Positions 39,779-64,000 of a stretch of DNA of 64,000 nucleotides are shown one piece after another. The notes below the pieces were generated by a model. It saw only the letters and a program-made list of their open reading frames with translations. It was not told where the DNA came from and searched no databases. This stretch comes from an uncultured Planctomycetota bacterium (GTDB lineage Bacteria; Planctomycetota; PLA2; JAEUHO01). Each line of letters opens with the position of its first letter. The stretch's first letter is position 1. The stretch spans positions 960,001-1,024,000 of the forward strand of contig CAVVXN010000005.1 of the NCBI GenBank assembly GCA_963752285.1. The letters run 5' to 3'. A program made the translations under genes and the position numbers.

Positions 39779-40114
39779 TCAGTGCCTCAGGTCTACGACG
39801 AGACGTCCCGACCCGAAGAGGCGGTCCCACTCCGCGGGCGAGATCGAGAGCGGCACCGGGAACGAGGCGTCGCCCGGGTGCGCGATGCCGGTCTTCGCGG
39901 CCTCGAGGGTCGCGAATCGCTTGTACGCGTTGTTCCGCTTGGCGGCGTTCGAGATCCGCCGTCCGCCCGCCGAGAGGCGCCAGTACGTGGTCTTCTCGAC
40001 CGGAGCGGGGGTCGTAGACGACCCACCGCCCCCGCCGCACCCCACCAGCGCGCCCAGCGTGAGCGCGCCCGCGCCCACGAGGAATCCACGGCGGGAGAGG
40101 TCCGACACGTCCAC
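39779..40114 (-). CDS. small Tat-exported lipoprotein
   Basis: SRRGFL twin-arginine motif, hydrophobic stretch, lipobox LVGC, Gly/Ser tether; GGAG 5 nt before GTG. Confidence 0.75.
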   Translation of the reverse strand: MDVSDLSRRGFLVGAGALTLGALVGCGGGGGSSTTPAPVEKTTYWRLSAGGRRISNAAKRNNAYKRFATLEAAKTGIAHPGDASFPVPLSISPAEWDRLFGSGRLVVDLRH

Positions 40115-40355
40115 GCGCACTCCAGGAGAGAAATGAATGGCGGAGGGAGGCTCCGGCCCTCCCCGCCGGTTCAACGTCACCGTCAGCCCGACTTTGCGAT
40201 GCGGCCTTACGCCGGAAGCAGACGTGCCTATCCCGGTCCGCCCGGGGCCTTATGTGGGAGCTTCGGTATGAAGGCTCGCTCACGCGACCTACCCGCCCCA
40301 CCTTTTCATTCGCCTGCCTTGTGGTGCTCCTTTCCGCATCCTTTCCGCGGCCACA

Positions 40356-40479: not shown

Positions 40480-42219
40480 CTACGGGGGCCCCAGGAGCTC
40501 GGTCGAGTAGCCGCCGTTCCCGTTGGGGCGGAAGACCATGGAGTTCCCGAACAGGTTCGTCCCGCTGCTCCACTGCTGCCACGCGGCCTGTCCCGAAGAC
40601 CACGAAGGTTCCGACGACCAGTTCACGCCCACCTGGCTGTACGGGCTGCCCGGCGAGACGCCGACGGCGAGCGAGCTGTACCACGTGCTCGAGATCCAGA
40701 ACATCGCGAACTCGCCACTCGGCTTGATCTGCAACTGGGCGGTGACGGCCCCCCCGAGGTAGTACCAGTAGCAGTTCGAGAAGGTGAAGGTGAAGCGCGG
40801 CGGGTTCGCCGTCACCTTGTAGTAGGCGCCGGTGTAGTACGGCATCAGGTCCCATCCGACCAGCATGATGCAGGGGTAGGTCGAGAAGGTTCCGGAGTAG
40901 GAGGTGTGGATGCCGCCGAAGTCGATGTAGCCGTTGGCGTCGAGGTAGCCCTGCGACCAGTTGGTCCCGTAGAACGGGAAGTCGAACCCGAAGGACACGA
41001 GGCTCGAGTCGTCGTCGTAGAAGCTCGAGAGCAGGGTGCCGAAGCTCGTGTCGTACGTGGGCTTCCAGTGGTACGTGAAAGCGGCCAGCAGCGTGACGGT
41101 CCCGTGGGTGTTCGTGAGCGCCACGTCCACCGTCCCCTCGGACTGGCTCGGCGCATTGCAGGTGACCTGCGTGTCGTTCACGACGACGACGTTCGTGGCC
41201 TCGATGCTGCCGAACAAGATCGTCGGCGTGCCCGCGCCCACGTCCTGGAAGCCGCTCCCCGTCAGGGTGACCGGCGTCTCGACGTTCTCGAGGCCCTGGT
41301 TGGGGCTGATCGAGCTGAGGACGGGCGGCGGGAAGAACGTGAACGCGTCGGGGAGCGTGCTCTGGCCGTTCGTGTTCGACACGGCCACGGCCACGAGGCC
41401 CAGCGTCCCGCTCGGCGAGGTGACGCAGGTCAGGTGCTGGTCGTCGATGCGCGTGACGCTCGACGCCTGCTGCCCTCCGAACGTGACGCGGAGCACGCCT
41501 CCGGGGATCGTGAAGTAGTCGCCGGTGACCGTCACGAGCGTGCCGCCGTTGGCGCCGCCCGCGTTGGGGCTCACCGAGTAGACCTGCGGGATGGGCCCAC
41601 GGTACGTGAACGCGTCCGCGAGGCCCGCGGCCCCGTTGTGGTTCGTGACGATCACGTCCACGGGCTGCTCGAAGTAGACCTTCGGCGTGATGCACGTGAG
41701 GGTCGTGTCGTCCACGACCTGGAGGCCGGTCCCGGGGATGCCGCCGAACGTCGCGACGTTCTGGATGGGGTTGTTGTTGAGGAACCCCGTGCCGGTGAGG
41801 GTGACCAGGAGGCCTCCGTCGCGGCTCCCCTCCGTGGGGGTCAGGCTCGCGAGCGTCGGAGGCGGGTTGTACGTGAAACCGGACGCGAGCGACCCGCTGC
41901 CGGCGTTCTTCGTGACGCTCACCTCGACGGCTCCGGCCGCGTGGGGCGGCGTGGTGCACGTGATCGTCGTGTCGCTCTGCACGACGACCTGCGTCGCGGA
42001 CTCGCCTCCGATCTGGACGTCGGTGACGCCCAGGTCGTAGTTCACGAAGCCCGTCCCCTGGACGGTGATCTTGGTGCCACCACCGATCCCGCCCGTCGGC
42101 GGGTTCACGGCGGTCACGACCGGCGGCGCCTGCTGCTGTGTGCTGGAGCTCCCTCCGCCGCAGGCGGAGAGGCTGAGGGCGAGGAGGGCGACCGGGACAA
42201 TGACCCAGGAACCACGCAT
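40480..42219 (-). CDS. IPT/TIG-repeat surface lipoprotein with C-terminal nidogen-like domain
   Basis: Lipobox LSAC, four IPT/TIG repeats (PPVVTAVNPPTGGIGGGTKITVQGTGF...FTY), C-terminal FGFDFPFYGTNWSQGYLDANGYIDF. Confidence 0.88.
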   Translation of the reverse strand: MRGSWVIVPVALLALSLSACGGGSSSTQQQAPPVVTAVNPPTGGIGGGTKITVQGTGFVNYDLGVTDVQIGGESATQVVVQSDTTITCTTPPHAAGAVEVSVTKNAGSGSLASGFTYNPPPTLASLTPTEGSRDGGLLVTLTGTGFLNNNPIQNVATFGGIPGTGLQVVDDTTLTCITPKVYFEQPVDVIVTNHNGAAGLADAFTYRGPIPQVYSVSPNAGGANGGTLVTVTGDYFTIPGGVLRVTFGGQQASSVTRIDDQHLTCVTSPSGTLGLVAVAVSNTNGQSTLPDAFTFFPPPVLSSISPNQGLENVETPVTLTGSGFQDVGAGTPTILFGSIEATNVVVVNDTQVTCNAPSQSEGTVDVALTNTHGTVTLLAAFTYHWKPTYDTSFGTLLSSFYDDDSSLVSFGFDFPFYGTNWSQGYLDANGYIDFGGIHTSYSGTFSTYPCIMLVGWDLMPYYTGAYYKVTANPPRFTFTFSNCYWYYLGGAVTAQLQIKPSGEFAMFWISSTWYSSLAVGVSPGSPYSQVGVNWSSEPSWSSGQAAWQQWSSGTNLFGNSMVFRPNGNGGYSTELLGPP

Positions 42220-42417
42220 GCGTCCGTCTCCTAGCTCGGGCCGACCGGACCCCTCCCGGGGAACCGGCCCAGGGCGTGCTGCACACCGCGTACCCGCGGG
42301 GCGCACCCTACCGCGGGCCCCCCCCGGGGCGCAATATCCACGGGCAGCCCGCCGGACCGCGCGCGCCCCGCAGGGGCCGCGTTCCCCCCTAGCATGGACC
42401 CTCTCTCGGAACCGGTC

Positions 42418-49540: not shown

Positions 49541-49648
49541 GCGATCCTCCGGGTGTCCGATGAACGGCGCTCGGCCGCCCCTCCGAGGGGGCGCCTATAC
49601 TCCCCCGGTCGGCCGACCCACGGGGGTTCGGCCCGGGAGGCCCCCCCG

Positions 49649-50500
49649 ATGCATGTCCGCCCGTGTGCGTGCCGAGTCCCCGGACTCGCGGCCCTCCTCC
49701 TCCTGGCCGCGTGTGGCGGCGGCGGAGGCGGGTCGTCGGCGGCCCCGGTCCAGCTCATCACCTCGAACGTGGTCCAGGCCATGCCCGCGGGCTACCGCGC
49801 GGTCTTCGACGCCTCCGCGCGCGTCAGCGTCAGCACCGCGCCGGTGCCGATCGACCTGACCGGCACGTACACGCTCTCGAACGAGGGCACGACCGTCGTC
49901 TACCCGCTCGACACGAGCCGCTCGGGCACGAAGGTCAAGAGCGAGATCGAGCTCGTGGTCCCGCAGATCGTGCGGAACCAGTACCCCAGCCTCCCGGCGA
50001 CGGTGCTCTTGACGCTGCGGGAGTACGTCGAGTTCGCGAACGACGGTACGTGGTACGCGCTCGGCGGCGACGCCGAAGACCCCACCGCCGTGCCGCCGGT
50101 CACGCACGTCTCGTGGGCCGCCACGCCGACGGTGGACTTCGAGCCGACGATCTTCCCCGGCCAGACGGTCGACGTACCCGAGACCGACGTCCTGGCCGAC
50201 GACCTCGTGACGGTCCTCGCGTCGCGCAAGAGCACGCGGACGGTGGCCCTCGCCACCGAGGTGCTCGACACACCTCTCGGACGCCTGGAGTGCTACCGCT
50301 CGGACGTGATCGAGACGGTCCAGCCGAACGCCCCCGGCGCGCTCCCCGTCGAGGTCACGTACCGCCGCTGGGAGCGACCCGACCTCGGTCTGATCCAGCT
50401 CCACCTCGAGAACTACCAGGTGACGGTGACCTACCAGATGCAGCCGGTGACGATCACGGTCCAGCGGATGGACGCCTACCTGCGCTCCCTCGCGCCCTGA
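49649..50500 (+). CDS. hypothetical beta-rich lipoprotein
   Basis: Lipobox LAAC + GGGGGGSS tether; TEVLDTPLGRLECYR and WERPDLGLI C-terminal motifs; GGAGG RBS. Confidence 0.75.
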   Translation: MHVRPCACRVPGLAALLLLAACGGGGGGSSAAPVQLITSNVVQAMPAGYRAVFDASARVSVSTAPVPIDLTGTYTLSNEGTTVVYPLDTSRSGTKVKSEIELVVPQIVRNQYPSLPATVLLTLREYVEFANDGTWYALGGDAEDPTAVPPVTHVSWAATPTVDFEPTIFPGQTVDVPETDVLADDLVTVLASRKSTRTVALATEVLDTPLGRLECYRSDVIETVQPNAPGALPVEVTYRRWERPDLGLIQLHLENYQVTVTYQMQPVTITVQRMDAYLRSLAP

Positions 50501-50515: not shown

Positions 50516-51772
50516 TCACGACTCGCTGGGCACGCCGAAGCGCGCGTGGTACCGGGCCGAGAGCCCCTCGACCTCGTCCTCCGCGAGCCCGAAGTCGGAC
50601 AGGGCGTAGCGGTGCACGCCGTGGCGGTGTCGCGGGTTCTCGGCGAGCCACCGCTCCATCCGGACCCGCATCGCGGCCGAGACGTCTCGTCCCGCCGCGG
50701 CCTGGACGCGCTCGACCACCTCGATGGGCCTCGCCACCAGGTCGGCGTAGAGCACCTCCACGACCCGCTGGCGGTCCCGCGCCTCGATCGGCTTCTCCAT
50801 CGCGTCCAGGACGCGCCGGCCGAGGCGCAGGGCCTGGCGGCCGAGCTCGAGGTCGTCCACCCGCGCCCCGACGAGGTGGCGCAGGAGCCGTACGAGGCTG
50901 CACGTGGAGGGGAGCACCTTCCGTGTGTCGCGGTGCGTGCGGACCACGATCGCGTCCGGATAGGCCTCGAGGAGCGCGGGGACCGACTGGAGGTGCGCCG
51001 GTGACTTGAGCAGCCAGCGCCCGCCGGGGCGGCTCCACTGCAGCACGCGGAGCTGGTCGGCGTGGAAGCGGTACGCATCCACGAACCGCGACGGCGGCTG
51101 GCCGTCGAGCCACTGCCGGTACGAGGGCACGTACGCGTAGAGGTGCCAAGCGGGCGACACGAACGTCCGCAGGAGCAGCGGGAGGCACTCCTCCGGCCCG
51201 GCGGCGGTGACCGCGTGGACCGACGGGAGCTCGGGCACGACGTCGAGGAGCATACGCACGTCGCGCGCGTGCTTCCGGGGTCTCGGGTCGCCGAAGAGAC
51301 CGCGCCGGGGCAACGGGTGGTACGCCTCCCAGCCGAGCAGAGGTCGCGCCTCCGGGTCCGCGGCGAGGAGGTTCTGGAGCAGCGTGGTGCCCGTGCGGGG
51401 GAAGCCCGCCACGAAGAGCGGCCGGTCGATCCGCTCCGCGGCGATCTCGGGGTTCGCGAGGACGAGGTCGCGGATCCGGAGACGGTTCTCGAGCGCGCGC
51501 GTCACCATGCCGCCCGCGACGAGGCGACCCAGCGGCGTCAGCCGCGCCTCCGCTTCGAGCGCGCGCGCGAGCACGGGGAGGGCCTCCACGACGGGCGCCT
51601 CGGCGAGGTCGTCGGCGGCGGCGTCCTGCACGCGCGCGCGGCGCCTCGCGCGGCGGAGCAGGCGGTCGGGGTCGAGCGCCGACCGGCCGAGCCCGACCCA
51701 GGCGCCCGCCCGGGCGGCGCGGCCCGCGAGACGGACGCCGGCGCGCGTGAGCGCGCCCCGTCGGGCGCTCAC
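50516..51772 (-). CDS. PAPS-dependent sulfotransferase (Sulfotransfer_3-like)
   Basis: 5'-PSB AGFPRTGTTLLQNLL, WLLKSPAHL, 3'-PB THRD...STCSL; GGAGG RBS in the 10 nt after the PKS stop. Confidence 0.92.
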   Translation of the reverse strand: MSARRGALTRAGVRLAGRAARAGAWVGLGRSALDPDRLLRRARRRARVQDAAADDLAEAPVVEALPVLARALEAEARLTPLGRLVAGGMVTRALENRLRIRDLVLANPEIAAERIDRPLFVAGFPRTGTTLLQNLLAADPEARPLLGWEAYHPLPRRGLFGDPRPRKHARDVRMLLDVVPELPSVHAVTAAGPEECLPLLLRTFVSPAWHLYAYVPSYRQWLDGQPPSRFVDAYRFHADQLRVLQWSRPGGRWLLKSPAHLQSVPALLEAYPDAIVVRTHRDTRKVLPSTCSLVRLLRHLVGARVDDLELGRQALRLGRRVLDAMEKPIEARDRQRVVEVLYADLVARPIEVVERVQAAAGRDVSAAMRVRMERWLAENPRHRHGVHRYALSDFGLAEDEVEGLSARYHARFGVPSES

Positions 51773-51782
51773 GGCGCCCTCC

Positions 51783-54700
51783 TCACGAGGCCCGCCCGGC
51801 CACGGCGGTCTCCGCGAGGGCCACGGCGAGGACGTGGCCCCTCGTCACCGAGGTCCGGACGCGGAGGTCCGCTCCGCCCTCGTGGCGCACGTCGAACGCG
51901 CCGTCCGGGCAGATCCGGACGGCCTCGTACGCCTTCGGCCGCCCGCGAAGGCCGGTGCCCCGGGCCTTCGCCGCGGCCTCCTTCGCGCACCAGAGTCGCG
52001 TCGCCCACGTCGGGTCGTCCGGGTGCCCTGCTTCGGCGAGGCGGCGCACCTCGTCCTCCGTCGCGAACGAAGCGACGTCGAGGTCCCGCGCGGCGTCCGC
52101 GCGCTCGAGGTCCACCCCCACCGGGCCGGACGCGGCCACCGCGACGGCCGCGTCCTCGGTGTGGGACAGCGACAGGTAGGGCGCCGGACCTCCCCCCGCC
52201 TCGCGGACGCGCGGCGCGCCCGCCTCGTCCGTTCCGATGGAGACGGCCGCCGGATGGAGCATGTCGTCCCGGCCCGCGCGCCGCGCCAGGAAGGCGCGGA
52301 GCGCGTCCTTGAGCGCCGCGCGCCCGAGGAGCCAGGCGCGACGCCGACGCGGCGTCGCGTCGAGCGCGCGCCATGCCGCCTCCTCGTCGGCGTGGAGGAC
52401 GTTTCGCGCGAGCCAGTCGGGCGGCAGGTCGCGCACCGCGTCGGCGTCGAGCCACACCACGACGTCGCCGGGATCGAGGCCGAGCGCGGTCGGGTCGCCC
52501 TCGACCGGCTCGGCCAGCAGGTGACGCCGCGGCGCGCGGTGGTTCTCGAGCAGACGTCGCGGCCAGCGGAACGCGGCGTCGCGCCACCCCCGCAGGCGGA
52601 ACCACACGTGGCCCTCGCCGTCCTCCACCTCGACGTCCGCGACGGTGCGCCGACGCTCCCAGTCGACCTCCCTGAGCTCCGCGCGCGCGGGGCACCGCGT
52701 GCCCGGCGCGGGGCTCGCGCGGTACAGCTCGACCCGGTCCACGGCCACCGGGAGCACGTAGCCCTCCTCTCCGTGGAACCACGACCCCACGAGCTGTCCC
52801 GCGCCGTCGAGCGTAACGGGGTCGAGCAGGAGGTGCGGGTCGGGCTCGCCGCGGAACAGCTCGTCCCGGCGCAGCACCTCGAGCGTCCCGGCGACGCCGC
52901 GCCCGCGGCGCTCCGTGAGCTCCGCGAGGCAGCGGAACCGTGGGCCGTGGAACAGCTCCCCGTCCTCGTAGAGGCGACGTGCCGTCGTGCCGAACGGCCG
53001 GTCGTCCGGGAAGCGCGTGAACGCGAACCGGACCGTCTCGCGGTAGCGCGTACCCAGGTGGACGTCGGCGCGCGCGACCCGATCGTCCCCCACGGACGCC
53101 TCCACGCGCACGACGGCCGCCTCGGCCGAGCGCCGCCGGACCTCGGCCCGGACCGCCACGCGCACCCGGTCCACGCCCTCGAACGCGATCCAGCGCCGGG
53201 CCCGCACGTCCTCGAGCGCCACGAGGCCGAGACCCGGCGCGAGGTGGACCGCGTGTTCCGACAGCATCTCCATGGTCATCGTGAGCGGGACGACGGGGAG
53301 ACACAGCGCGAGCGGCTTCTCGCCCCGCGCGTTCGAGAACACGTGGTCGGCGAGCCAGGGGTGCTCGGCGAGCGCGAGGTCCACGACGGTCTCGAGCCGC
53401 ACGCCCGGCTCGTGCGCCGTGACCCGTCCCACGAACGGCATCCGCCCGCGCGGCGCGCGCAGCTCCCTCGCGGCCGACGCGCGCGGGGCCTGCGGCGGGA
53501 CGGGGGGCGCCGGCGACGCGGCCAAGACCGGGGCCACCGCCTCCGCCTCGGTCTCCGGCGGTGCATCCGGCGCCTCGTGCATCGGAGGCCAGTAGAAGCT
53601 GAGGGGGACCGCGGCGCGCGGGGGCGACGCGGGGTCGCGCGGTCGGTCGAGGTCGATCGGCGCCGGGCGCCGCGCGGGGAAGAGCCCCGTCCGGTCGATC
53701 GCGAAGCCGTGCGCGAAGAGCTGGCCCGCGAGCGCCTGGATCTGCGTCAACGGCTCGCGGTGCGCCACGTCCATCGCCACGCAGACCACGTCGTCCCGGT
53801 CGAGCACGGAGCGGCTGTTCGCCGCCATCGTCCCCGACCCGATCTGCACGATGAAGCGCGCGCCCTCGTCGGCCATGCGTCGCATCGTCTGCCAAAAGCG
53901 GATGGGGCGCGACACGTTGGTGCGGAGCACGCGATCGACGTCGTCCGGGTCGCCACGGATCGGCGCTCCGAGCACCGCCGACCAGATCTCGATCCGCGCC
54001 GGACGAAGGCGCTCCAGCTTGCCGAGCGCCTTCGCGAACTCCGCCTCCACGTCGGCGAGGTGCGGCGTGTGGATGGGCGGGAACGGCAACGGCTGCGCGA
54101 GGATCCGCGCGCCACGGAGGGCTTCGGCGAGCGCGCGCACCGCCGTCTCGGGCCCTCCCACCACCTGGGTCGTCGGCGAGAGGTGGAGGCCGATCGACAC
54201 GCCCGGATGCGCGGCCAGGAAGGGGAGGAGCTCCTCCTCCGACGCCCCCACCATCGCGATGATGCCGGTGCCCTGGACGGGGAGCTGGATGTCGAACGCC
54301 TTCCAGAAGCCCGGCACGTGCTCCTCGAAGTCGGTCATCCCGGCGGCGAGCACCGCGGAGACGTCGCCGAGGCTCTGCCCGCACACCATGTCGGCCCGCA
54401 CACCGAGCGAGCAGAGGATCCGCCAGGCCGCCTCGTTGTTCGCGAGCATCCCCATGTGGGAGAGGCTCCGCGCGTCGGGGCGCGCGGGCGCCTCGGCCTC
54501 CGACGCCGACACGCGGGGCGGCGGCGCGAACCGCGCGAGGAGCGCCGCGCGCGTCTCGGCCGGCAGGTGCGGCGGCGGCACGAGGAGGAGGCTCGTCGGG
54601 ACGGGGTCCCCGGGGTTCCCGTCGCGCCGCTCCACGTGGTCGAAGACCTCGCGGGCCGCCGGGAAGTGGAGGCAGGTCTCGAGCAGGTGGCGCGGGAACT

Positions 54701-56561
54701 CGCCGACGAGGCCCGGGAACGCGAGGCCCGGGAACACGGCCGCGATCCGACCGCGCGGCCCGTCCACTCCCGTCGCCGGGTCCGAGACGTAGAGGAGATC
54801 GGCCTCCCGGGTCTCGAGCGCGCCGGACTCGATCGCGGCGACGAGCGCGTCGAGCCGCGGCTCGAGCGGCTCGGACGCGTCGTGCACGAACGCGAGCCGC
54901 GCGGCGTCCTGTGCGCGCGCCTCGCCCAGGGCGGCCCACGCGAGGTCCTCGAGCGTCGCCGCGCGCCGGTCGGCGCGCACGAACGCGAGGAGGCGCCGGA
55001 GCCGCGCCGCGACCGCCACGCGGTCGCGGCCCGAGAACAGGAGGACCTCCGTCGCGCGGCGGACGCGACTCTCGGGCGCGCGCGCGACGAGCACGGGTCC
55101 GCCGAGGGCCTCCTCCGACTCCGTGCGCCCGGCGCCGGGGACAACCACCCGCGTCGCGCGCGCGGGCACGGGCCGCGCCTCCTCCAGCACGACGTGCGCG
55201 TCGATGCCCCCGAAGCCGAAGGCGTCCACGCCCGCGCGGCGGGGCGCGGCCGGCGACTCGAGCCAGGGACGCGCGGCGCCGGGGACCCAGAACGACGTGT
55301 CGGCGAGCGCGGGGTGGGGCTGCTCGCAGTGGAGGCTCGGGTAGACCACCTTGTTCGAGAGCGAGAGCGCGGTCTTGATCAGCGCGGCCACGCCCGCGGC
55401 GGGCATCAGGTGGCCGATCATCGACTTCACGGAGCCCAGCGGGCGCGCCGGCACGCCGCCGCGCGGCGGACCGAACACACGGCGCAGCGTCTCCAGCTCG
55501 ACGTCGTCGCCCTCGCGCGTCCCCGTGCCGTGCGCCTCGACGAGCCCGATCGTCTCGGGATCGACGCCGGCGTCGTGGTACGCCCGCTCGAGCGCCCGCA
55601 CCTGTCCCCCCGCCGCGGGGGCGAGGACGCCGCGCTGGCGTCCGTCGCTCGCACTGCCGGCGCCCTTGACGATCGCCCACACCGGGTGGCGGCGGGCGAT
55701 CGCGTCGTCCAGGCGCTCGAGCACGACGGCGCCCGCGCCCTCGCCGATGAGCATGCCGTCCGCGCGCCGGTCGAACGGCCGGATGCGTTCGGAGGGCGAG
55801 ATCGCGAGGATCCGGTCGAAGAGCCACCAGAACGCCGGCACCTGCGTGAGGTTGACGCCCGCCGCGACGGCGATCTCCGCGCGCCCGTCGCGGAGCCGGA
55901 GCACGGCGGTCTCGAGGGCGAGGAGCGACGAAGCGCACGCGCCGTCCACCGTGAAGGCCGAGCCGCCGAGGTCCAGGCGGTTCGCCGCGCGGGACGGGAC
56001 GAGATTGGGGATGCTCGAGGCGAGCCCGTCCACGTCGTACGGAGGAAGCGTGCGGCGCAGGGCGGCGTCGATCCCGTCGAGGAGCTCCGGGCCGAGGCCC
56101 GGCGCGCGCGACGAGAGGAAGCGCGAGAAGCGGTCGATGCCCTCCGACCGCAGGAACACCTCCATCATCTTGTTGCTGGTGTAGCCGCCGCGCCCGACGA
56201 TCAGGTCGGTCGCGGCGCGCCGCGGGTCGTCGCGACCGACGCCGGCGTCTTCGAGCGCCCGCGCGACCACGTCGAGCAGCAGGAACTGGTCGGGATCGCC
56301 GTCCCGCGCGATCCTCGGCATGATGCCGTACCGCGCGCCGTCGAACCAGTGCGGCGTGTCGAGGAACCCGCCGCGGCGGAAGCGGATGTGCGCCTCGTGG
56401 TCCGAAGGGACCTCGTGGTTCTGCGCGCCGGGCCAGCGCTCCCGGGGGAGATCCCGGAGCGCGTCCACGCCGCGAGCCAGGTTGCTCGCGAACGTCGCGA
56501 GGTCCGGCGCGCCGGGGAACACGCACGCCATCCCGACGATCGCGACGTCCCTCTCGCTCAT
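51783..56561 (-). CDS. PUFA-synthase-like PKS subunit 2: KS-AT-DH-PPTase
   Basis: From ATG 56561 (4-nt overlap with the upstream stop): KS (DGACASS, EAHGTGT, KSMIGH), AT (GQSLG, PIHT), DH (HPWLADH...VVP, LDGAGQ), Sfp-type PPTase (LSLSH, VGVDLE, WCAKEAAAKARG). Confidence 0.92.
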   Translation of the reverse strand: MSERDVAIVGMACVFPGAPDLATFASNLARGVDALRDLPRERWPGAQNHEVPSDHEAHIRFRRGGFLDTPHWFDGARYGIMPRIARDGDPDQFLLLDVVARALEDAGVGRDDPRRAATDLIVGRGGYTSNKMMEVFLRSEGIDRFSRFLSSRAPGLGPELLDGIDAALRRTLPPYDVDGLASSIPNLVPSRAANRLDLGGSAFTVDGACASSLLALETAVLRLRDGRAEIAVAAGVNLTQVPAFWWLFDRILAISPSERIRPFDRRADGMLIGEGAGAVVLERLDDAIARRHPVWAIVKGAGSASDGRQRGVLAPAAGGQVRALERAYHDAGVDPETIGLVEAHGTGTREGDDVELETLRRVFGPPRGGVPARPLGSVKSMIGHLMPAAGVAALIKTALSLSNKVVYPSLHCEQPHPALADTSFWVPGAARPWLESPAAPRRAGVDAFGFGGIDAHVVLEEARPVPARATRVVVPGAGRTESEEALGGPVLVARAPESRVRRATEVLLFSGRDRVAVAARLRRLLAFVRADRRAATLEDLAWAALGEARAQDAARLAFVHDASEPLEPRLDALVAAIESGALETREADLLYVSDPATGVDGPRGRIAAVFPGLAFPGLVGEFPRHLLETCLHFPAAREVFDHVERRDGNPGDPVPTSLLLVPPPHLPAETRAALLARFAPPPRVSASEAEAPARPDARSLSHMGMLANNEAAWRILCSLGVRADMVCGQSLGDVSAVLAAGMTDFEEHVPGFWKAFDIQLPVQGTGIIAMVGASEEELLPFLAAHPGVSIGLHLSPTTQVVGGPETAVRALAEALRGARILAQPLPFPPIHTPHLADVEAEFAKALGKLERLRPARIEIWSAVLGAPIRGDPDDVDRVLRTNVSRPIRFWQTMRRMADEGARFIVQIGSGTMAANSRSVLDRDDVVCVAMDVAHREPLTQIQALAGQLFAHGFAIDRTGLFPARRPAPIDLDRPRDPASPPRAAVPLSFYWPPMHEAPDAPPETEAEAVAPVLAASPAPPVPPQAPRASAARELRAPRGRMPFVGRVTAHEPGVRLETVVDLALAEHPWLADHVFSNARGEKPLALCLPVVPLTMTMEMLSEHAVHLAPGLGLVALEDVRARRWIAFEGVDRVRVAVRAEVRRRSAEAAVVRVEASVGDDRVARADVHLGTRYRETVRFAFTRFPDDRPFGTTARRLYEDGELFHGPRFRCLAELTERRGRGVAGTLEVLRRDELFRGEPDPHLLLDPVTLDGAGQLVGSWFHGEEGYVLPVAVDRVELYRASPAPGTRCPARAELREVDWERRRTVADVEVEDGEGHVWFRLRGWRDAAFRWPRRLLENHRAPRRHLLAEPVEGDPTALGLDPGDVVVWLDADAVRDLPPDWLARNVLHADEEAAWRALDATPRRRRAWLLGRAALKDALRAFLARRAGRDDMLHPAAVSIGTDEAGAPRVREAGGGPAPYLSLSHTEDAAVAVAASGPVGVDLERADAARDLDVASFATEDEVRRLAEAGHPDDPTWATRLWCAKEAAAKARGTGLRGRPKAYEAVRICPDGAFDVRHEGGADLRVRTSVTRGHVLAVALAETAVAGRAS

Positions 56562-59500
56562 CGTCGCCCCGGGGTCGTGCCTCCGCGGGCGAGCGCGGGC
56601 GCGCCGACCGCCCACACCACCTCCGGTGACCGCTCCGTCGTTCGCCGGATCTCGTCGAGGAACGCCTCGCTCCCGTCCGCGGGGTCGATCAGCCCGATCC
56701 CCCGCTCCCGGTAGACGCGGCGGAGCCCGTCCGAGAGCATCCCGCCGTCCCACGGGCCCCAGTTGATCGCGACGACGCGCGCCGGCCAGCGCCGGTCGAG
56801 GTCGGCCGCGAGCTTGTTCAGGACCTCGTTGGCGGCGCTGTAGTCCGCCTGGCCCGCGTTCCCGAACCGGCCGGACACCGACGAGAAGAACGCGAGGAAG
56901 CGGAGCCGCTCGGGGTCGAGCCGCCGCGCGAGCACGAGCGCGGGCCGCACCTTCGTGTCGAACACCCGCGCGCAGGACGCGGCGGTCTTGTCCTCGATGC
57001 GCCGATCCTCGACCACGCCGGCGGCGTGGATCACGCCGTCGATCCGTCCGTGCCGCGCGTACACGTCGTCGATCAGGTTCCCGAACGCCTCGTCGTCGCG
57101 GACGTCGAGGGCGTGGTACTCGACCGCGGCGCCCGTGGCCTCGAGGGCCGCGAGGTTCGCGCGGACCTCGCGCTCCACCAGGACCCGTCGCGCCTCCGTC
57201 TCGATCGCCTCCGGCCGCGGCGGCGCGCCCGACGCGGCGGCACGGCGCGCCAGCGCCGCGCGAAGGGCGGCGCCGTCCCGCGCGCCGGCGAGGTCGGCCG
57301 GCTCGGCCGCCGGCCCCGGTCGGGGCGAGCGCCCGACGATCACGAGCAGCGCCCCGGACGCCGCGGCGAGACGCTTCAGCACCTCGGCGGTGATCCCGCG
57401 CGCGCCGCCCGTCACGAGCACGACCGACTCCGCGTCGAGGGGCAGCGCGGCGAGCGCGCCGGCGTCGCCGCCGGGGTGGCCGTCGCCATCCCCGTGGCCG
57501 TTGCCGTTCCCCGTGCCGTTCCCGGCCCCCGAGCCGTTCCCGTGCCCGCCGGCGGCGGCGAGGTCGAGACGCCAGCGGCCGGCGCGGTCGAGGCCCACCT
57601 CGACCAGGTCGTCCGTCGCGCCCGCCTCGGCGGCGAGCCGCGTCAGCACGATCTCGGCGTCGGCGTCGGGGTCGACGTCGATCGACTTCACCCGGACGCC
57701 GGGCCACTCCTTCGCCAGCGCCTTGAAGAAGCCGACGCTCGCCGCCTGCGCCACCGCGAGCGGGCGCCGGCCCCCGAGGCCGAAGCGACCGTCGAGCGCG
57801 GTGACGTTCAACAGCAGGGCGCCTCCGGCCTCCGCCGACGCCCGGAGGTCGGGGCCGAACGCCTGCCCCACGGTCAGCAGCTGCCGGAGGATCCGCGCCC
57901 CCGCGCCGGCCTCGTCCGTCGCGTCCCGCACCCTGGGATCGAGGCCCAGGAGGTTCACGAGGGCGCCGACGCGCCGTCCGCCGTCCGCGAGGACCGCGCG
58001 GAGGCGGTCCACCGCCGCGCGGTCCTCGAGGTCCACGGCGAAGCGACGCTCGTCGAGGCGTTCGAACCCGCGACCCGGCAGCACCTGCCACGCGGGGACC
58101 CCGGCGCTCCGGAGCCCGCTCCCGATCGCGCCGTACGCCTCGGGCCCGTCTCCGAGCACGAGCACGCCCGCGTCCGGCGCGAGCCCGAGTGTCGTCGGCT
58201 CGAGATCCGCCGGAGGAAGCGCGGCCTCGACGCTCTCGAGCACCCACCGCTCGACGGGACGGGCCGGCGGCGAAGCGACGGTCGCCGCCGACGGGGTGTC
58301 GGTGGTCGCCGTCGCGCTCCCGGACGGCGCGGCCCCGGACGGCGGGGCCGCGGGGGCGACGGACGCGCGGGCCGCGCGGGCGTTCGTGCCGTCGTCGGCC
58401 GGCGACGGCGGCACGTCGGCGCCGACCACCTCGCGCTGGTGCGCGTAGCGCTCGACGATCGCGCCTATCGTCTTGAGCCGCGTGAACTCGGCCAGCACCT
58501 CCTCCTCGTCCTGGTCGGGGTCGGCGAAGTAGCGGTGGTAGCGCTTCAAGGCCGAGAAGATCTCCATCAGCTTGATGGAGTCGATTCCGAGGCCCGCCTC
58601 GAGCGGCACGTCCGGGAGGAGCAGATCCTCCGGGTAGCCCGTGCGCCGGCTCACCTCGCGGAGCAGCTCCTGGTGGAACGTCTCGACCGAGGGCGCCTCG
58701 CCGGCCGCGGCCTCGCCCGTCACCGCGCGCGCGCCCCCGGCCGTGTCGCTCGCGGCGGGCGTGTCGGACGACACGTCGTTCCCTCGCGCCGCCCCCGGCC
58801 CGGGCGCGGACGGATCGGCGCCCCCGCCCCCGACCTCGGGCGACCCCGGCGACGCGAGCGGCTCGAGCGGCGCGAGGACCGGCGTCGGCACGACGCCGAG
58901 GAAGGCGGGCTCGGCGCCGGAGGCCCCCGCCTCCGCGGGCGGGCGGACCGGGGGGACCGAGCCCGACGGGGTCCCGTCGAGGAGCCGCGTCTGGAGCTCG
59001 ATCAGCCGCTCGAATACGCGCTGCTGCTCGCGCTGGAGGCCGATCCAGTCGCGGATCGTCCGCTGGACCTCGAGCGGGAGGGTCGCATCGCCCCGCGCGC
59101 CGCGGACCTCCGGTCCGAGCGGCCGTTCGATGGGCGCGGGCGTCGGGGACGGCGGCGGAGCGGGGGACGGATCGGGCTCGGGCATCGGCGGAGGGTCGCC
59201 GCTCTCGCCGTCCCGTCCACCCGCGCGCGGGGTGCGGGCGGGCGCGGGCACGACGGCACGCGCCTTGGGCGCGGACGCGGGCCCGTCCGCGGGCGACGCG
59301 CCCGGGGCCGCGGATCGCGCGGCCTCTCCGGCCCGGGGGGCGACGGGCGAGACGCCGCCCGGCTCCACGAGCACGTCGGTCGGCCGGACCCTCTCGGCCT
59401 CGCGGATCTCGCGCGTCACCTCCGAGAGCCCCCGCGACCCGAAGCCTCGGCGCGTGAAGAGCGGCGCGAGGTCCACCTCGAGCCCGATCGCGAACGCGCG

Positions 59501-62500
59501 CGCGAGGAGCCTCGCGAGGACGAGCCCTCCGGGCTCGCCGGGAAGGTCGAGCGGGAGGGTCACGTGCGGCCGCCCCTCGAGGATCCGGCGCACGAACCCG
59601 GAGAGGATCCCGCCGGGACCCGCCTCGACGAACACCCGCGCGCCCGCGTCGTGCATCGCGCGGACCTGCTCTACGAACCGCACGGGATGCGAGAGGTGAC
59701 GCCCCAGCAGCTCCTTCATCGCCACGACGTCGCGCGGGTACGGCTTGGCGGTCACGTTGCTGTGCACCGGGACCGCCGGCGGCCGCATCGCGACCTTCTC
59801 GAGCTCCGGCAGGATCGCCTTCGAGGCCTCCGTGACGAGCGCGGTGTGGAACGCGGCCGACACCGGGACACGCCGGGCCGCGAGCCCACGGGCCGCGAGA
59901 CGGGTGAGGCCCTCGTCCACCGCCGCGCGCGGGCCGGCCACGATCGTCTGGCGGGGCGCGTTCAGGTTCGCGATCTCGAGACCCAGATGCTCCTCGGCGA
60001 GGGCCGCCCGGACCTCGTCCTCGCCGGCCGCGACGGCGATCATCCCGCCCTCGCCCTCGGCGGCGACGTCGTGGACCGCGGCGCCGCGGAGCGCAGAGAC
60101 GACGAGCAGGTCGCGTCGCCCGTACGCGCCGGCGGCGTGGAGCGCGACGTACTCGCCGTACGAATGCCCGGCGGTGAAGGCGGGCCGGAGGCCGAACGTC
60201 GCGAGCACGTCGAGCGCGAAGAGCTCGACCGCGCCGAGCGCGGGCTGGGCGACGCGCGTGTCCTCGAGCTCCTCCCGCCGGCGGCGACGGTCGGCCTTCG
60301 TCCACGCCGGCTGCGGGAACACGTAGGCGGACAGCGGCACCGGCAGCAGGTCGCGCAGGAGGTGGTCGGCCTCCTCGAACACGCTCGTGTCGAACCCGGC
60401 GGTCGTGACGAGGTCGCCGAGCATGCCGATGCGCTGCGCGCCCTGGCCCGGGAACAGGAAGGCGACCTCCTTCGCGCGCGCCGGGGGCGCGTCCGAGAGC
60501 CAGGTCCCGCGCGCCTCGTCGAGGCCCGCCCCCGCGGCGAGCGCCTCACGCGCCCTCGCGAGCGCCGATCGGAGGTCCGAGAGCGAGGACGCCACGACGC
60601 CGAGCCGCGCCGCGTCGGGCCCGTCACGGTCGCGTGCGCGCTCGTCGGCGTGGACCGCGGCGGCCACGCGCGCGAGGGCGCCCTCGGGCAGGCCGGCCGT
60701 CTCGCCCTCGATCCTCGCGACCGCCTCCGCGAGGGCCTCGCGCGTCGGGCGCCCGATCGACACCACCTCGGCGTCGCGCGGCGCGAGGTCCCGCGTCGCG
60801 TCCGGGCAAAACGCGTCCTCGTACGCCTCCAGGACCACGTGGAAGTTCGTCCCCCCGAACCCGAACGCGCTGACGCCCGCGCGGCGCGCCGGGTGGCGCA
60901 CGTCGCGGATCCAGGGCCGCCGCTCGGTGTTCGCGTACACGCGGGAGCCCGCTTCGAGGAGACGCGGGTTCGGGCGCTCCACGTGGAGCGTGGGCGGCAG
61001 CGTGCGGTGCGAGAGCGCCAGCGCCGTCTTCACGAGGCCGGCGAGGCCCGCCGCGGTCTTCGCGTGGCCGATCTGCGACTTCACGGAGCCGATCGCACAC
61101 GTCGGACGCCCGGGACCGAGCACGGCCTGGAGCGACTCGATCTCGGCCGCGTCCCCCACCGCCGTGCCGGTCGCGTGGGCCTCGATCAGCTCGACGGTCG
61201 CCGGGTCCACACCGGCGTCCTCGTACGCACGACGCAGCGCGAGGACCTGCCCCGCGGGATGCGGCGCCGTCAGGCTCCGGTTCCGCCCGTCGCTCGAGGT
61301 CCCGATGCCCCGGATCACCGCGTACACGTCGTCGCCGTCGCGCTCCGCGTCCTCGAGGCGCTTCAGCACGACGGCCCCGACGCCCTCGCCGAGCACGATC
61401 CCGTCCGCGCCGGCGTCGAAGGGGCGCGGCACGTCCCCCGGCGTGAGTGCCTGGGTCTTCGCGAAGCCCATGAACGTGAACGCGTTGTTCGAGCCGTCGG
61501 CCGCGCCGACCACGACCACGTCGGCGACGCGTGACCGGAGCTGTCCCACGGCGGCGTGGAGCGCCGCCAGCGACGACGAGCACGCGGCGTCCACCACGTA
61601 GTTCGCACCCATGAGGTCGAGCCGGTTCGCGATGCGACCGGCGATCAGGTTGGGGAGCACGCCGGGGAACACGTCCTCGGTCCACGGGGGCAGGGCGGCC
61701 CGCACCGATTCGACCGCCCGCCGCCGCGCGTCGTCGCCGAGCGACGATGTGCGGAGGAGGAGCTGCTCGACCATCGTGCGGAACACGTACGAGATGCCCA
61801 GGTCGTGGATCCCGCTCGACCCGAAGATCACGCTCGTCCGCTCGCGCGGGAAGGGATGGCGGTCGAAGCCCGCGTCCTCGAGCGCGCGCCGCGCGGTCTC
61901 GAGCGCCAGGAGCTGCACGGGCTCGAGGTGCGTCACGGTCGCCGGCGGGATGCCGTAGCGCAGCGGGTCGAAGCGGATCGGCTCCAGGAACGCGCCCCGG
62001 CGCGCGTAGAGCCGGTCGGGCGCGCGACGGTCGGGGTCGTAGAAGAGGCTCGGGCTCCATCGCGACTCGGGCACGTCCCGGACCGCGTCCGCGCCCCGGA
62101 GCACGCACGCCCAGAACGAGGCGAGGTCGGGCGCGCCCGGGAAGCAGCACGCCATGCCCACGATCGCGATGCGCTCCCCGCCGCTGCGCCGGCGCGCGCC
62201 GACCGCGAGCGGCACGGCGTGCCGGTGCGTCCACTCGACCGCGCCGCGGGAGACCGCGTCGTGGAGCGCCGCCATCGACTGCCGGCCGTCGCGGAGCGTC
62301 GCGACGTCGCCGAGCATGAACATGCCCTCTCGCCGCTGTTCGGACGAGTCCACGCGCTCGAGCTCGCCCTCGAGGCGTTCGGCGCGGGACGCGAGGTCGT
62401 CGGCCTCCGCGTCGGCTCGCCCGCGGCGTCGGAGTCCCTTCGAGGCGACGCGGAGCCGCCCCACGTTCAGGATCTCCAGGTCCACCCGCACGTCCTCGGC

Positions 62501-64000
62501 CGAGCGGCCGGCCGCGAGGAGCGAGCGCCGGCGACTCCTGAACTCCTCCGCGAACGCCGTGTCGGCGCACCGGGAGGCGTGGCCGAGCCCCGAGCGAAGG
62601 AGCGTCGTCCTCCGGCAGGCGATCGCCTCTTCCTGGAACGCGGGTGAGATCGCGCCCGTCGCCACGGCCTCGGGGGTGAAGAGGTAGGCGGTCCCCAGGA
62701 GGACGCCGATCGCGACGCCCCGCTCCACGAGGCCCGCGGCGAGCGTCTGCACCATGCCCGCGGAGGCCGCGTCGTGGATGCCGCCCGCGAAGAGCACCCG
62801 GACGGTCGCGAGGTCCACGCCCGCGTCGCAGAGACGGTCGATCGCGCTCTGCCACAGCACGAAGCTCGACCGCGGCCCGACGTGGCCGCCGCACTCGCGC
62901 CCCTCGAGGACGAAGCGGCGCGCGCCCTCCACGAGGAACGCCTCGAGCAGGCCGGGCGACGGGACGTGCAGGTACGTCTCGATGCCCTCGGCCTCGAGCG
63001 CCGCGGCCTGCGCGGGCCGCCCGCCGGCGACGATCGCGAAGCGTGGTCGGATCTCGCGCACGACCCGGAGCTGCTCCTCACGGAGCTGCGGCGGGACGAA
63101 GCCCAGGATCCCGACGCCCCACGGCGACGCGCCGAGCTGGGAACGGGCGCCCTCGAGCATTCGCCGTACGGCGTCCTCGCGCAGGAGGGCGAGCGCGAAG
63201 AACGGGAGCGCGCCGTGCTCGGCGACCGCGCGCGCGAAGGCGGGCACGTCGCTGACGCGCGTCATGGGCCCCTGGACGACCGGGTACCGGGTCCCGTGGA
63301 CGCGGGCGAGCGTCGCGTCGGGCGCCAAGGCGCGCTGGGCGGGCGCGCGGTCCAGATGGTGCCGCACCTCGGCGCGGTACCGCTCGAGGATCCGCCCGAG
63401 CGTGCCCGCGGTCTTCGCGAGGCGCGCCGCGAAGGCGACGCCCTGTCCCATCGGGACGGGCCCGCCGGACTCCGGCGGTCGCTCGCGCCAGCGGGCGAGG
63501 ACGGCGCGCACCGCCTCGAGCCCGCCGGGCTCCGCGACCTCGAGCGCGGCGACCGCGTCGCGGTCCTCGTGCCGGAACAGCCGGACCGCGGCCCCCTCTT
63601 CCGCGAGCAGGACCGTCTCGGTCCCGTCGAGGGCCTCGAGGCGCCGGCGCTCCCGCGCGTCGAACGGCGCCTCCCGCGCGAGCCAGGTCTCCTCCGAGAG
63701 GACCACGCCCTCCGCGCCCCCGAGCCGGAGCGCGGCCGCGACGTCGGGGCCCGTGGCGCCGCGGACGAGGTAGGGCAGGCCCAGCCGCTCTCCCACGGCC
63801 TGCACGAAGAGGAACGTCGAGAGCGCGCCCGCCCGCCCCCCGGCCTCCTGGCCGACCAGGACGACGGTGTCGGGACGGGCGTCCCGGGCCGCACGCGCCT
63901 GATCGGGGTCGTACGCCTCGACGTACACGCGATCGGCGAGACGCCGGGCCTGCCGCACCGCCTCCGCCACACGCGCGGGGTCGCCGGAGAGACCGGCCAG
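56558..64000 (-). CDS. PUFA-synthase-like PKS subunit 1: pseudoER-ER(FabK/PfaD-like)-KS-AT-ACP-KR (5'-truncated by window edge)
   Basis: TIM-barrel ER (VQGPMTRVSD, EGRECGGHVG, FAGGIHD), KS (DAACSSS, EAHATGT, KSQIGH), AT (FPGQG, GHSYG, AFHT), one ACP (LGIDSIK), KR (TGGARGIT, YSAANE). Confidence 0.93.
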   Translation of the reverse strand: MAGLSGDPARVAEAVRQARRLADRVYVEAYDPDQARAARDARPDTVVLVGQEAGGRAGALSTFLFVQAVGERLGLPYLVRGATGPDVAAALRLGGAEGVVLSEETWLAREAPFDARERRRLEALDGTETVLLAEEGAAVRLFRHEDRDAVAALEVAEPGGLEAVRAVLARWRERPPESGGPVPMGQGVAFAARLAKTAGTLGRILERYRAEVRHHLDRAPAQRALAPDATLARVHGTRYPVVQGPMTRVSDVPAFARAVAEHGALPFFALALLREDAVRRMLEGARSQLGASPWGVGILGFVPPQLREEQLRVVREIRPRFAIVAGGRPAQAAALEAEGIETYLHVPSPGLLEAFLVEGARRFVLEGRECGGHVGPRSSFVLWQSAIDRLCDAGVDLATVRVLFAGGIHDAASAGMVQTLAAGLVERGVAIGVLLGTAYLFTPEAVATGAISPAFQEEAIACRRTTLLRSGLGHASRCADTAFAEEFRSRRRSLLAAGRSAEDVRVDLEILNVGRLRVASKGLRRRGRADAEADDLASRAERLEGELERVDSSEQRREGMFMLGDVATLRDGRQSMAALHDAVSRGAVEWTHRHAVPLAVGARRRSGGERIAIVGMACCFPGAPDLASFWACVLRGADAVRDVPESRWSPSLFYDPDRRAPDRLYARRGAFLEPIRFDPLRYGIPPATVTHLEPVQLLALETARRALEDAGFDRHPFPRERTSVIFGSSGIHDLGISYVFRTMVEQLLLRTSSLGDDARRRAVESVRAALPPWTEDVFPGVLPNLIAGRIANRLDLMGANYVVDAACSSSLAALHAAVGQLRSRVADVVVVGAADGSNNAFTFMGFAKTQALTPGDVPRPFDAGADGIVLGEGVGAVVLKRLEDAERDGDDVYAVIRGIGTSSDGRNRSLTAPHPAGQVLALRRAYEDAGVDPATVELIEAHATGTAVGDAAEIESLQAVLGPGRPTCAIGSVKSQIGHAKTAAGLAGLVKTALALSHRTLPPTLHVERPNPRLLEAGSRVYANTERRPWIRDVRHPARRAGVSAFGFGGTNFHVVLEAYEDAFCPDATRDLAPRDAEVVSIGRPTREALAEAVARIEGETAGLPEGALARVAAAVHADERARDRDGPDAARLGVVASSLSDLRSALARAREALAAGAGLDEARGTWLSDAPPARAKEVAFLFPGQGAQRIGMLGDLVTTAGFDTSVFEEADHLLRDLLPVPLSAYVFPQPAWTKADRRRRREELEDTRVAQPALGAVELFALDVLATFGLRPAFTAGHSYGEYVALHAAGAYGRRDLLVVSALRGAAVHDVAAEGEGGMIAVAAGEDEVRAALAEEHLGLEIANLNAPRQTIVAGPRAAVDEGLTRLAARGLAARRVPVSAAFHTALVTEASKAILPELEKVAMRPPAVPVHSNVTAKPYPRDVVAMKELLGRHLSHPVRFVEQVRAMHDAGARVFVEAGPGGILSGFVRRILEGRPHVTLPLDLPGEPGGLVLARLLARAFAIGLEVDLAPLFTRRGFGSRGLSEVTREIREAERVRPTDVLVEPGGVSPVAPRAGEAARSAAPGASPADGPASAPKARAVVPAPARTPRAGGRDGESGDPPPMPEPDPSPAPPPSPTPAPIERPLGPEVRGARGDATLPLEVQRTIRDWIGLQREQQRVFERLIELQTRLLDGTPSGSVPPVRPPAEAGASGAEPAFLGVVPTPVLAPLEPLASPGSPEVGGGGADPSAPGPGAARGNDVSSDTPAASDTAGGARAVTGEAAAGEAPSVETFHQELLREVSRRTGYPEDLLLPDVPLEAGLGIDSIKLMEIFSALKRYHRYFADPDQDEEEVLAEFTRLKTIGAIVERYAHQREVVGADVPPSPADDGTNARAARASVAPAAPPSGAAPSGSATATTDTPSAATVASPPARPVERWVLESVEAALPPADLEPTTLGLAPDAGVLVLGDGPEAYGAIGSGLRSAGVPAWQVLPGRGFERLDERRFAVDLEDRAAVDRLRAVLADGGRRVGALVNLLGLDPRVRDATDEAGAGARILRQLLTVGQAFGPDLRASAEAGGALLLNVTALDGRFGLGGRRPLAVAQAASVGFFKALAKEWPGVRVKSIDVDPDADAEIVLTRLAAEAGATDDLVEVGLDRAGRWRLDLAAAGGHGNGSGAGNGTGNGNGHGDGDGHPGGDAGALAALPLDAESVVLVTGGARGITAEVLKRLAAASGALLVIVGRSPRPGPAAEPADLAGARDGAALRAALARRAAASGAPPRPEAIETEARRVLVEREVRANLAALEATGAAVEYHALDVRDDEAFGNLIDDVYARHGRIDGVIHAAGVVEDRRIEDKTAASCARVFDTKVRPALVLARRLDPERLRFLAFFSSVSGRFGNAGQADYSAANEVLNKLAADLDRRWPARVVAINWGPWDGGMLSDGLRRVYRERGIGLIDPADGSEAFLDEIRRTTERSPEVVWAVGAPALARGGTTPGRR
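57470..57550 (-). repeat. low-complexity Gly-Asn/His repeat linker within the KR region
   Basis: GHGNGSGAGNGTGNGNGHGDGDGH encoded by repeated GGGAACGGC-like units. Confidence 0.6.

Follow-up and report, generated by a model that had tools for sequence, protein, structure and literature searches.

We investigated a stretch of 64,000 nucleotides from an uncultured Planctomycetota bacterium (contig CAVVXN010000005.1, positions 960,001 to 1,024,000), referred to as the window, at one end of which an operon encodes a two-subunit polyketide synthase (PKS1 and PKS2) followed by a sulfotransferase (ST). A preliminary description of this DNA had reported three co-oriented genes joined by a 4-nt overlap and a 10-nt gap with GGAGG. 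This arrangement was confirmed from the sequence: all three open reading frames lie on the minus strand, PKS1 and PKS2 overlap by the 4 nt ATGA, and the junctions and catalytic motifs were verified. The features are listed below with the evidence for each; domains are abbreviated as enoyl reductase (ER), ketosynthase (KS), acyltransferase (AT), acyl carrier protein (ACP), ketoreductase (KR), dehydratase (DH) and 4'-phosphopantetheinyl transferase (PPTase), and PAPS is 3'-phosphoadenosine 5'-phosphosulfate.

56558..64000, minus strand: PKS1 (pseudo-ER, ER, KS, AT, ACP, KR), 2568 aa, with its start 264 nt past the window end (Pfam, motifs, ArsA homology)
51783..56561, minus strand: PKS2, KS-AT-DH-PPTase, 1592 aa (open reading frame and Pfam)
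51773..51782, minus strand: 10-nt PKS2-ST spacer GGAGGGCGCC, its GGAGG lying 5 nt ahead of the start codon of the ST (sequence)
50516..51772, minus strand: PAPS-dependent sulfotransferase, Stf1/Stf9 subfamily, 418 aa, with GFPRTGTT and Arg126 (Pfam, PDB sequence match, fold)

The Pfam scan gave the order NMO/ER-KS-AT-ACP-KR for PKS1, KS-AT-PS-DH-ACPS for PKS2 and Sulfotransfer_3 (E 8.9e-38) for the ST, which agrees with the domain sets assigned earlier (ER-KS-AT-ACP-KR, KS-AT-DH-PPTase and sulfotransferase). As had also been noted, no thioesterase or reductase family was matched in the three proteins, and the same scan found no fatty acyl-AMP ligase in the operon. With a divergent NAD-glutamate dehydrogenase (GDH) gene upstream of PKS1 and a convergent lipoprotein-like gene 15 nt from the ST end, the transcription unit comprises exactly three genes. 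A scan for promoters and terminators found 0, with ~0 expected.

The coupling of the ST with the synthase, as read from the distribution of both across genomes, is the new result. The preliminary description had proposed a functional coupling, and co-conservation bears this out in a close relative, across the phylum and in a second family. Among close relatives, full-length PKS2 was found in at least 2 of 61 genomes (a floor from a strict first look) and the ST in 3 of 40 genomes of the order. The genome of the window (G000) and one other (G001) are common to both sets, and G001 carries all three genes in the same order. Across 401 genomes of the phylum, 11 matched a DH-PPTase query, three of them over both domains, and 18 matched the ST profile, nine of them above 280 bits. 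The ST adjoins the synthase in all three PKS2 genomes, compared with an ST in 6 of the 398 others (p 3.5e-4, congeners collapsed). Seven of the 121 genomes of family f5 matched, five with a long PKS2 whose second AT (AT2) has a GQS motif. ST matches above 300 bits were present in 5/5 of these GQS-type genomes versus 1/116 others, and neither genome with a GHS-type AT has an ST; weaker ST matches occurred in 50/121. Altogether, the ST subfamily was present in 7/7 sampled genomes with a GQS-type PKS2, adjacent in four.

The ST tree follows the KS trees (window, G001, P0201/P0003, P0205/P0008 and L054), and the arrangement varies: the ST lies downstream in the window, G449 and L054, is divergent in G413, and follows an exporter in L068. 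Three close ST homologs come from contigs of exactly the same lengths as those of PKS homologs (314210, 14345 and 188200), an indirect indication of the same association. The genome of L027 has no ST in its assembly and was not counted; its contig ends just before the ST of the matching locus L068. Within 1.5 kb upstream of GDH, no PKS domain was matched in the nine other family genomes having this gene, as far as sequence covered that interval. A metagenome scan gave 72 loci from the best 80 of 301 confirmed stretches, while a scan of the genome collection with a single query gave one. Of the dereplicated metagenome loci, 42 extend 1.5 kb or more downstream of the synthase; eight of these have an ST nearby, adjacent in five. 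In searches of open-access text (figures, supplements and MIBiG not included), no paper connected a sulfotransferase with this class of synthase or with hglE-KS. Likewise in open-access text, we found nothing relevant on planctomycete sulfated lipids, sulfotransferases or polyketides, and no product named for this synthase class by title or abstract start.

Membership of the ST in the PAPS-dependent Stf1/Stf9 group is indicated by a 5'-phosphosulfate-binding (5'-PSB) motif and a full-length fold match. At E<=0.001, the only PDB sequences matched were the mycobacterial Stf9 (2z6v, E 2.2e-48) and Stf1 (2zq5, E 2.6e-40). A profile built from 116 ST sequences scored 377 bits for Stf1 and 343 for Stf9, versus 38 for Ols and 31 for CurM. 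The predicted ST model gave template modelling (TM) scores of 0.78/0.75 against the Stf1/Stf9-type structures, with ~30% structure-based identity, versus 0.29/0.31 against Ols/CurM. No natural substrate for Stf1 or Stf9 was found in the open-access text.

Homology and domain content place the operon among the ArsA-family secondary lipid synthases, as it combines a full-length ArsA-homologous protein with a DH-PPTase partner. PKS1 is collinear with ArsA of Azotobacter vinelandii (P0145; 44% identity over 2603 columns, full length), with the same tandem ER and one ACP, and the DH-PPTase half of PKS2 has a homolog in the DH-PPTase protein encoded by ars-type loci. ArsA with the PPTase ArsD produces C23-C25 fatty acids (PMC4824345) or, in another account, saturated C22-C26 chains (PMC3098273). 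Unlike arsABCD (Type P of Shulse & Allen 2011), the window operon has no type III PKS between the arsA and arsD equivalents and does not fall into that type, PKS2 has an active KS and a PfaB-like AT fused before the DH-PPTase, and an ST follows. The genome's single type III PKS lies ~900 kb away; it stands alone (G000:C5:103179-109568), and what look by eye like genes for a flavin-dependent oxidoreductase and for a membrane protein of the MMPL-like kind lie close to it.

On sequence comparison, the two-gene layout is Type M-like, in agreement with the text description of that type (Renibacterium, Frankia and S. avermitilis, with further clusters in Aquimarina and Flavobacterium), in which an ER-PfaA fusion is paired with a PPTase-PfaBC fusion. 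A fused pfaDA plus pfaBC with PPTase is described as an uncharacterised Renibacterium synthase (PMC13291983) and listed as Type M (PMC3098273). The PPTase of PKS2 shows LSLSH, the hShxH motif of Types M-T (PMC3098273). Proteins with the same domain set as PKS2 were found in Streptomyces, where related pairs with largely unassigned products had been anticipated. The synthase core is of a catalogued kind with an uncharacterised product, and its layout is not new. In the tree, the window belongs to a separate subclade with a GQS-type AT2. Actinobacterial-type loci have an extra ACP-like gene, alpha/beta-hydrolases and a phosphodiesterase-family gene, none of which is in the window operon, whose association is with an Stf1/9-type ST.

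The domains of PKS1 are as follows.

63365..64000, minus strand, boundaries approximate: in-window part of the N-terminal pseudo-ER, EAGGR versus ECGGH in the active copy (internal repeat)
62291..63313, minus strand: FabK/PfaD-type enoyl reductase, His461 (PF03060 and TIGR03151)
60821..62176, minus strand: KS1, Cys895-His-His intact (Pfam and motifs)
59579..60469, minus strand: AT1, malonyl type, with PGQG, GHSYG, Arg1393 and AFH (motifs)
58451..58672, minus strand: single ACP, GIDS Ser1896 (Pfam and motif)
56747..57424, minus strand: KR, GGARGI and YSAAN Tyr2475 (Pfam and motifs)

The tandem ER was recognised as an internal repeat (27% identity over 146 aa, E 1e-4). The catalytic His was present in the first copy of 1/120 homologs, while ECGGH was present in the second copy of 118/120. 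Since ERs of this type function as dimers (PMC13311796), the dead first copy probably supplies the dimer partner for the active one. The Pfam match of the ACP was weak (E 7e-4, just under the cut-off), with the GIDS motif present.

PKS2 comprises four domains.

55179..56555, minus strand: KS2, Cys209-His-His intact, not a chain length factor (CLF) (motifs)
53826..54764, minus strand: AT2, PfaB-like, proposed off-loading domain, with Ser730 and His831 but neither malonyl Arg nor PGQ (motifs, alignment, fold)
52587..53381, minus strand: PKS-type dehydratase, ArsD-like, His1073 and Asp1252 (Pfam and motifs)
51822..52424, minus strand: fused PPTase, GVDLE and WCAKEAAAK (Pfam and motifs)

Catalytic motifs were intact in both KSs, AT1, the ACP, KR, DH and PPTase. 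These features are consistent with the iterative fatty-acid-like synthesis and the self-activation through the fused PPTase that had been suggested earlier.

The Ser and His of AT2 were invariant in 32/32 aligned homologs, and the predicted model has an AT fold with a predicted local distance difference test score (pLDDT) of 83. The malonyl-binding Arg was found in 158/158 first ATs versus 4/116 second-position ATs at the same spacing (two rows without the motif were left out), the latter divided as 1/48 for the GQS type and 3/68 for the GHS type. The PfaB or AT-like domains of polyunsaturated fatty acid (PUFA) synthases are alike in keeping the Ser-His dyad while losing the malonyl Arg, PGQ and the His of GHS; loss of the malonyl Arg and PGQ is among the features described for PfaB (PMC12895367). 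The window AT2 has no PGQ and reads GQS where PfaB has GYS; the likeness is one of motifs, and the activity of AT2 is predicted. A thraustochytrid AT of the PfaB-like kind has thioesterase activity (PMC8003026). We found AT2 retained where KS2 is dead (L069, L088 and L104) or was not detected (L109/111/113, G481 and G487). In the 39 loci with both KR and DH visible (not dereplicated), the interval between them held a type III PKS in 13/39 and a second AT in 26/39 (23 with a KS match), with no locus having both and none having neither. We infer, from sequence and by analogy, that AT2 off-loads the chain, because its motifs are PfaB-like, it persists after KS2 decay, and it is lost only beside a type III PKS. 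AT2 would then probably be the missing release domain, and the absence of a thioesterase therefore requires no release based on sulfation.

The product that we favour, with somewhat better than even confidence, is an O-sulfated long-chain hydroxy-lipid, mostly saturated, released by AT2 and sulfated either directly or as a glycoside. The PPTase of PKS2, whose motifs are present, would activate the single ACP of PKS1, in the manner of ArsD. AT1 would load malonyl, and repeated rounds of KS1, KR, DH (on PKS2) and ER would build a largely saturated chain of ~C22-C26, by analogy with ArsA/ArsD. KS2 would perform the last extension or extensions, with at least one hydroxyl escaping dehydration; this is the weakest step. 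The long acyl chain would be off-loaded by AT2 through hydrolysis or transfer, as its motifs and distribution suggest and as in PfaB-type ATs. The ST, coupled to the synthase, would move the sulfate of PAPS to the hydroxyl of the released lipid as its presumed substrate, or to a glycoside if an unlinked EryCIII/GT28-type glycosyltransferase takes part. Such a product would be anionic and amphiphilic, residing in the cell envelope or secreted as a surfactant.

Two-gene synthases of this kind occur widely and have stood in the catalogue since 2011 with no product assigned, and the window holds a minimal self-activating version in three genes. A sulfate tag would be readily visible by negative-mode mass spectrometry, which gives a practical entry to the product question. 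If the proposed pathway is true, it would give these catalogued synthases their first product and the Stf1/9-type subfamily its first natural lipid substrate. It would also explain the origin of the Azotobacter ars system, and would test whether a PfaB-like AT is a general release step.

Several points weigh against this reading. The chemistry is a prediction from sequence, and with an active DH and ER, nothing that we see forces a free hydroxyl. The fold search with AT2 returned an ordinary AT fold, with no match discriminating among ATs, and PfaB has been argued to be mainly a transferase (PMC12895367), which bears on the mode of release. The ST is not a universal neighbour, as 34/42 dereplicated loci have none nearby, and only 2/8 of the nearby metagenome STs belong to the window subfamily. 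The remaining 6/8 form a second subfamily, so STs were recruited at least twice beside these synthases. Within f5, the ST is adjacent in G449 and G413 and unlinked in the other 3/5, and G013 and G460 have an ST without PKS2. The sampled genomes are also kin (3/5 of the f5 genomes are of one genus, and G413 is in both samples), so the p-values overstate the association. Finally, cysD in G000 (C2:63252-64180) is broken up over three or more reading frames, and that genome gave no match to a Sat-type sulfurylase.

Among the alternatives, the one that survives best, itself unlikely, is that the ST was acquired with the surrounding block and acts on some other lipophilic alcohol, the synthase lipid being left unsulfated. 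Synteny with G001 extends to neighbours such as GDH and the MutS-like gene, five more phylum genomes besides G013 and G460 have the ST but no PKS2, and both the loci without a nearby ST and the apparently broken cysD would fit. A passenger gene is harder to reconcile with co-occurrence in the second family even where the genes are unlinked, with adjacency that recurs in different arrangements, and with congruent ST and KS trees.

It is rather improbable that KS2 replaces a type III PKS, adding 2-3 unreduced units that cyclise to an alkylpyrone or alkylresorcinol whose enol or phenol the ST sulfates. This would suit the slot shared by KS2-AT2 and the type III PKS, which are mutually exclusive, the intact KS2 found in 95/104 second-position KS rows, and the STs carried by the ars-type loci L050, L055, L058 and L095. 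There are precedents for sulfated pyrones and alkylresorcinols (Cpz6/Cpz8, panosialins). However, module decay keeps AT2 and not KS2, the only ACP has the KR in cis, and the STs of the ars-type loci belong to a different subfamily, with 23-29% identity.

The preliminary description had also raised release by sulfation, following the ST-thioesterase termination of CurM/Ols, in which an ST likewise stands at the end of a fatty-acid-like PKS. Here, the ST would sulfate an ACP-bound 3-hydroxyl, and hydrolysis by AT2 with decarboxylative elimination would give a terminal olefin. The lack of a standard release domain, the ST directly behind the synthase and the possibility that AT2 is a hydrolase are in its favour. 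We consider it very unlikely: by profile and TM score the ST is of the Stf1/Stf9 type and not of the CurM/Ols family, it is free-standing and often unlinked, not fused, the operon contains neither the cognate thioesterase nor a fatty acyl-AMP ligase, and the PfaB-like AT offers ordinary release. A true PUFA synthase (Types A, B, D and E), the product class implied by the earlier label "PUFA-synthase-like", is hardly credible despite a FabK/PfaD-type ER and a KS1 related to PfaA (TIGR02813, 933.8 bits, below the cut-off of 1010.1), as none of the genome's four FabA matches lies inside the operon to supply a FabA-type dehydratase/isomerase, KS2 has Cys-His-His and is no CLF, there is one ACP, and the closest characterised relative, ArsA/ArsD, gives saturated C22-C26 chains (PMC3098273).

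To return to the favoured O-sulfated lipid, sulfate supply and glycosylation were also considered. An adenosine 5'-phosphosulfate (APS) kinase is present in G000, and G001 has an intact cysD, over the cut-off, and APS kinases. At G000:C2:63252-66053, cysN/cysC also look fragmented, within a lower-GC polysaccharide island with insertion sequence (IS) elements and further split sulfotransferases; the broken cys genes reflect either an assembly error or decay. An EryCIII/GT28-type glycosyltransferase occurs together with the ST in L068, G449 and one G413 locus, and an unlinked homolog (37-38%) lies at G000:C1:567355-568587. In family f1, the three genomes that carry the ST are also the ones with this enzyme. 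It was present in 7/7 genomes with PKS2 and ST (5/5 of the f5 PKS2 genomes), but also in 24/116 other f5 and 6/38 other order genomes. This distribution is only suggestive of a part in the pathway, and the link is weaker than that of the ST.

The metagenome loci were of three kinds. Kind A consists of ArsA, a type III PKS, DH-PPTase, ABC/LolA-like export and a GT4 glycosyltransferase. Kind B has the synthase pair, often without ER, plus an HlyD/ABC/FtsX exporter. In kind C, the pair is accompanied by an additional small gene resembling an ACP, by alpha/beta-hydrolases and a member of the phosphodiesterase family, and by a GT28-type enzyme. Glycosyltransferases and exporters fill the ST position in other loci. 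In the FastTree KS tree (supports 0.93-0.95 at the main nodes, weak inside), ars-type loci nest among the KS-AT loci, and the dead-KS2 loci (L069/70, L088 and L104) branch beside them. The type III PKSs ArsB/C receive acyl chains directly from ArsA (PMC6274091). We propose, tentatively and at somewhat less than even confidence, that the GQS-AT synthase subclade, the Stf1/9 ST and the EryCIII/GT28 glycosyltransferase form an undescribed very-long-chain sulfo(glyco)lipid pathway in planctomycetes, and that the Azotobacter phenolic-lipid system is derived, a type III PKS having replaced the KS-AT off-loading unit.

PKS2 proteins with a dead or split KS and intact AT motifs were located at L069:5404-9657, L088:7353-11695 and L104:7442-11689, and are possible intermediates toward the ars system; in L088 and L104, an ST is directly downstream of PKS2. 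Four loci (L050, L055, L058 and L095) are complete ars-type clusters (ArsA, type III PKS, ArsD, exporter and GT4) with an ST of the second subfamily last, and are candidates for making sulfated alkylresorcinols or pyrones. In the kind B loci (L027, L042, L061, L068, L074, L076, L133, L136, L138 and L139), the KR is often on a separate gene and the HlyD/ABC/FtsX exporter mostly follows. These synthases lack the ER domains, and their chain should be more unsaturated or hydroxylated unless reduced by an ER in trans. In family f33, of the same phylum, five low-GC genomes match the PPTase part. Examples are L045 (G184:C6) and L048 (G201:C3), with an ArsA-like pair carrying two ACPs, then an ACP-like gene, phosphodiesterase-family genes and a probable flippase; L048 also has two B12 radical S-adenosylmethionine (SAM) genes.

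Around the operon, a fatty acid desaturase family gene lies 10-17 kb away in G000 (G000:C5:1040640-1041689) and G001, whereas in G013 it immediately follows the ST, with further coordinates at L022:414-1574 and L044:11190-12308. Just past GDH, G001 has a second, unrelated sulfotransferase (L023:17170-18090), and G000 has a YdjM-family gene at that place. Lipoprotein-like genes with a Cys-Gly-rich N-terminus were observed at window positions 40480-42330, 49553-50500 and 39779-40180, one with four IPT/TIG domains and the remaining ones without a Pfam match. Window positions 1-39000 hold ordinary housekeeping and catabolic genes (rpsA, cmk, aroA, purC, tetratricopeptide repeat (TPR) proteins, enoyl-CoA hydratase family, gcvP, serine dehydratase and exonuclease III family). 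A separate cluster resembling type II fatty acid synthase (FAS) at G000:C5:1793649-1800974 contains a pair of FabF-like KSs, domains of the FabA/Z-like type, another PPTase (the second) and a short-chain dehydrogenase/reductase (SDR).

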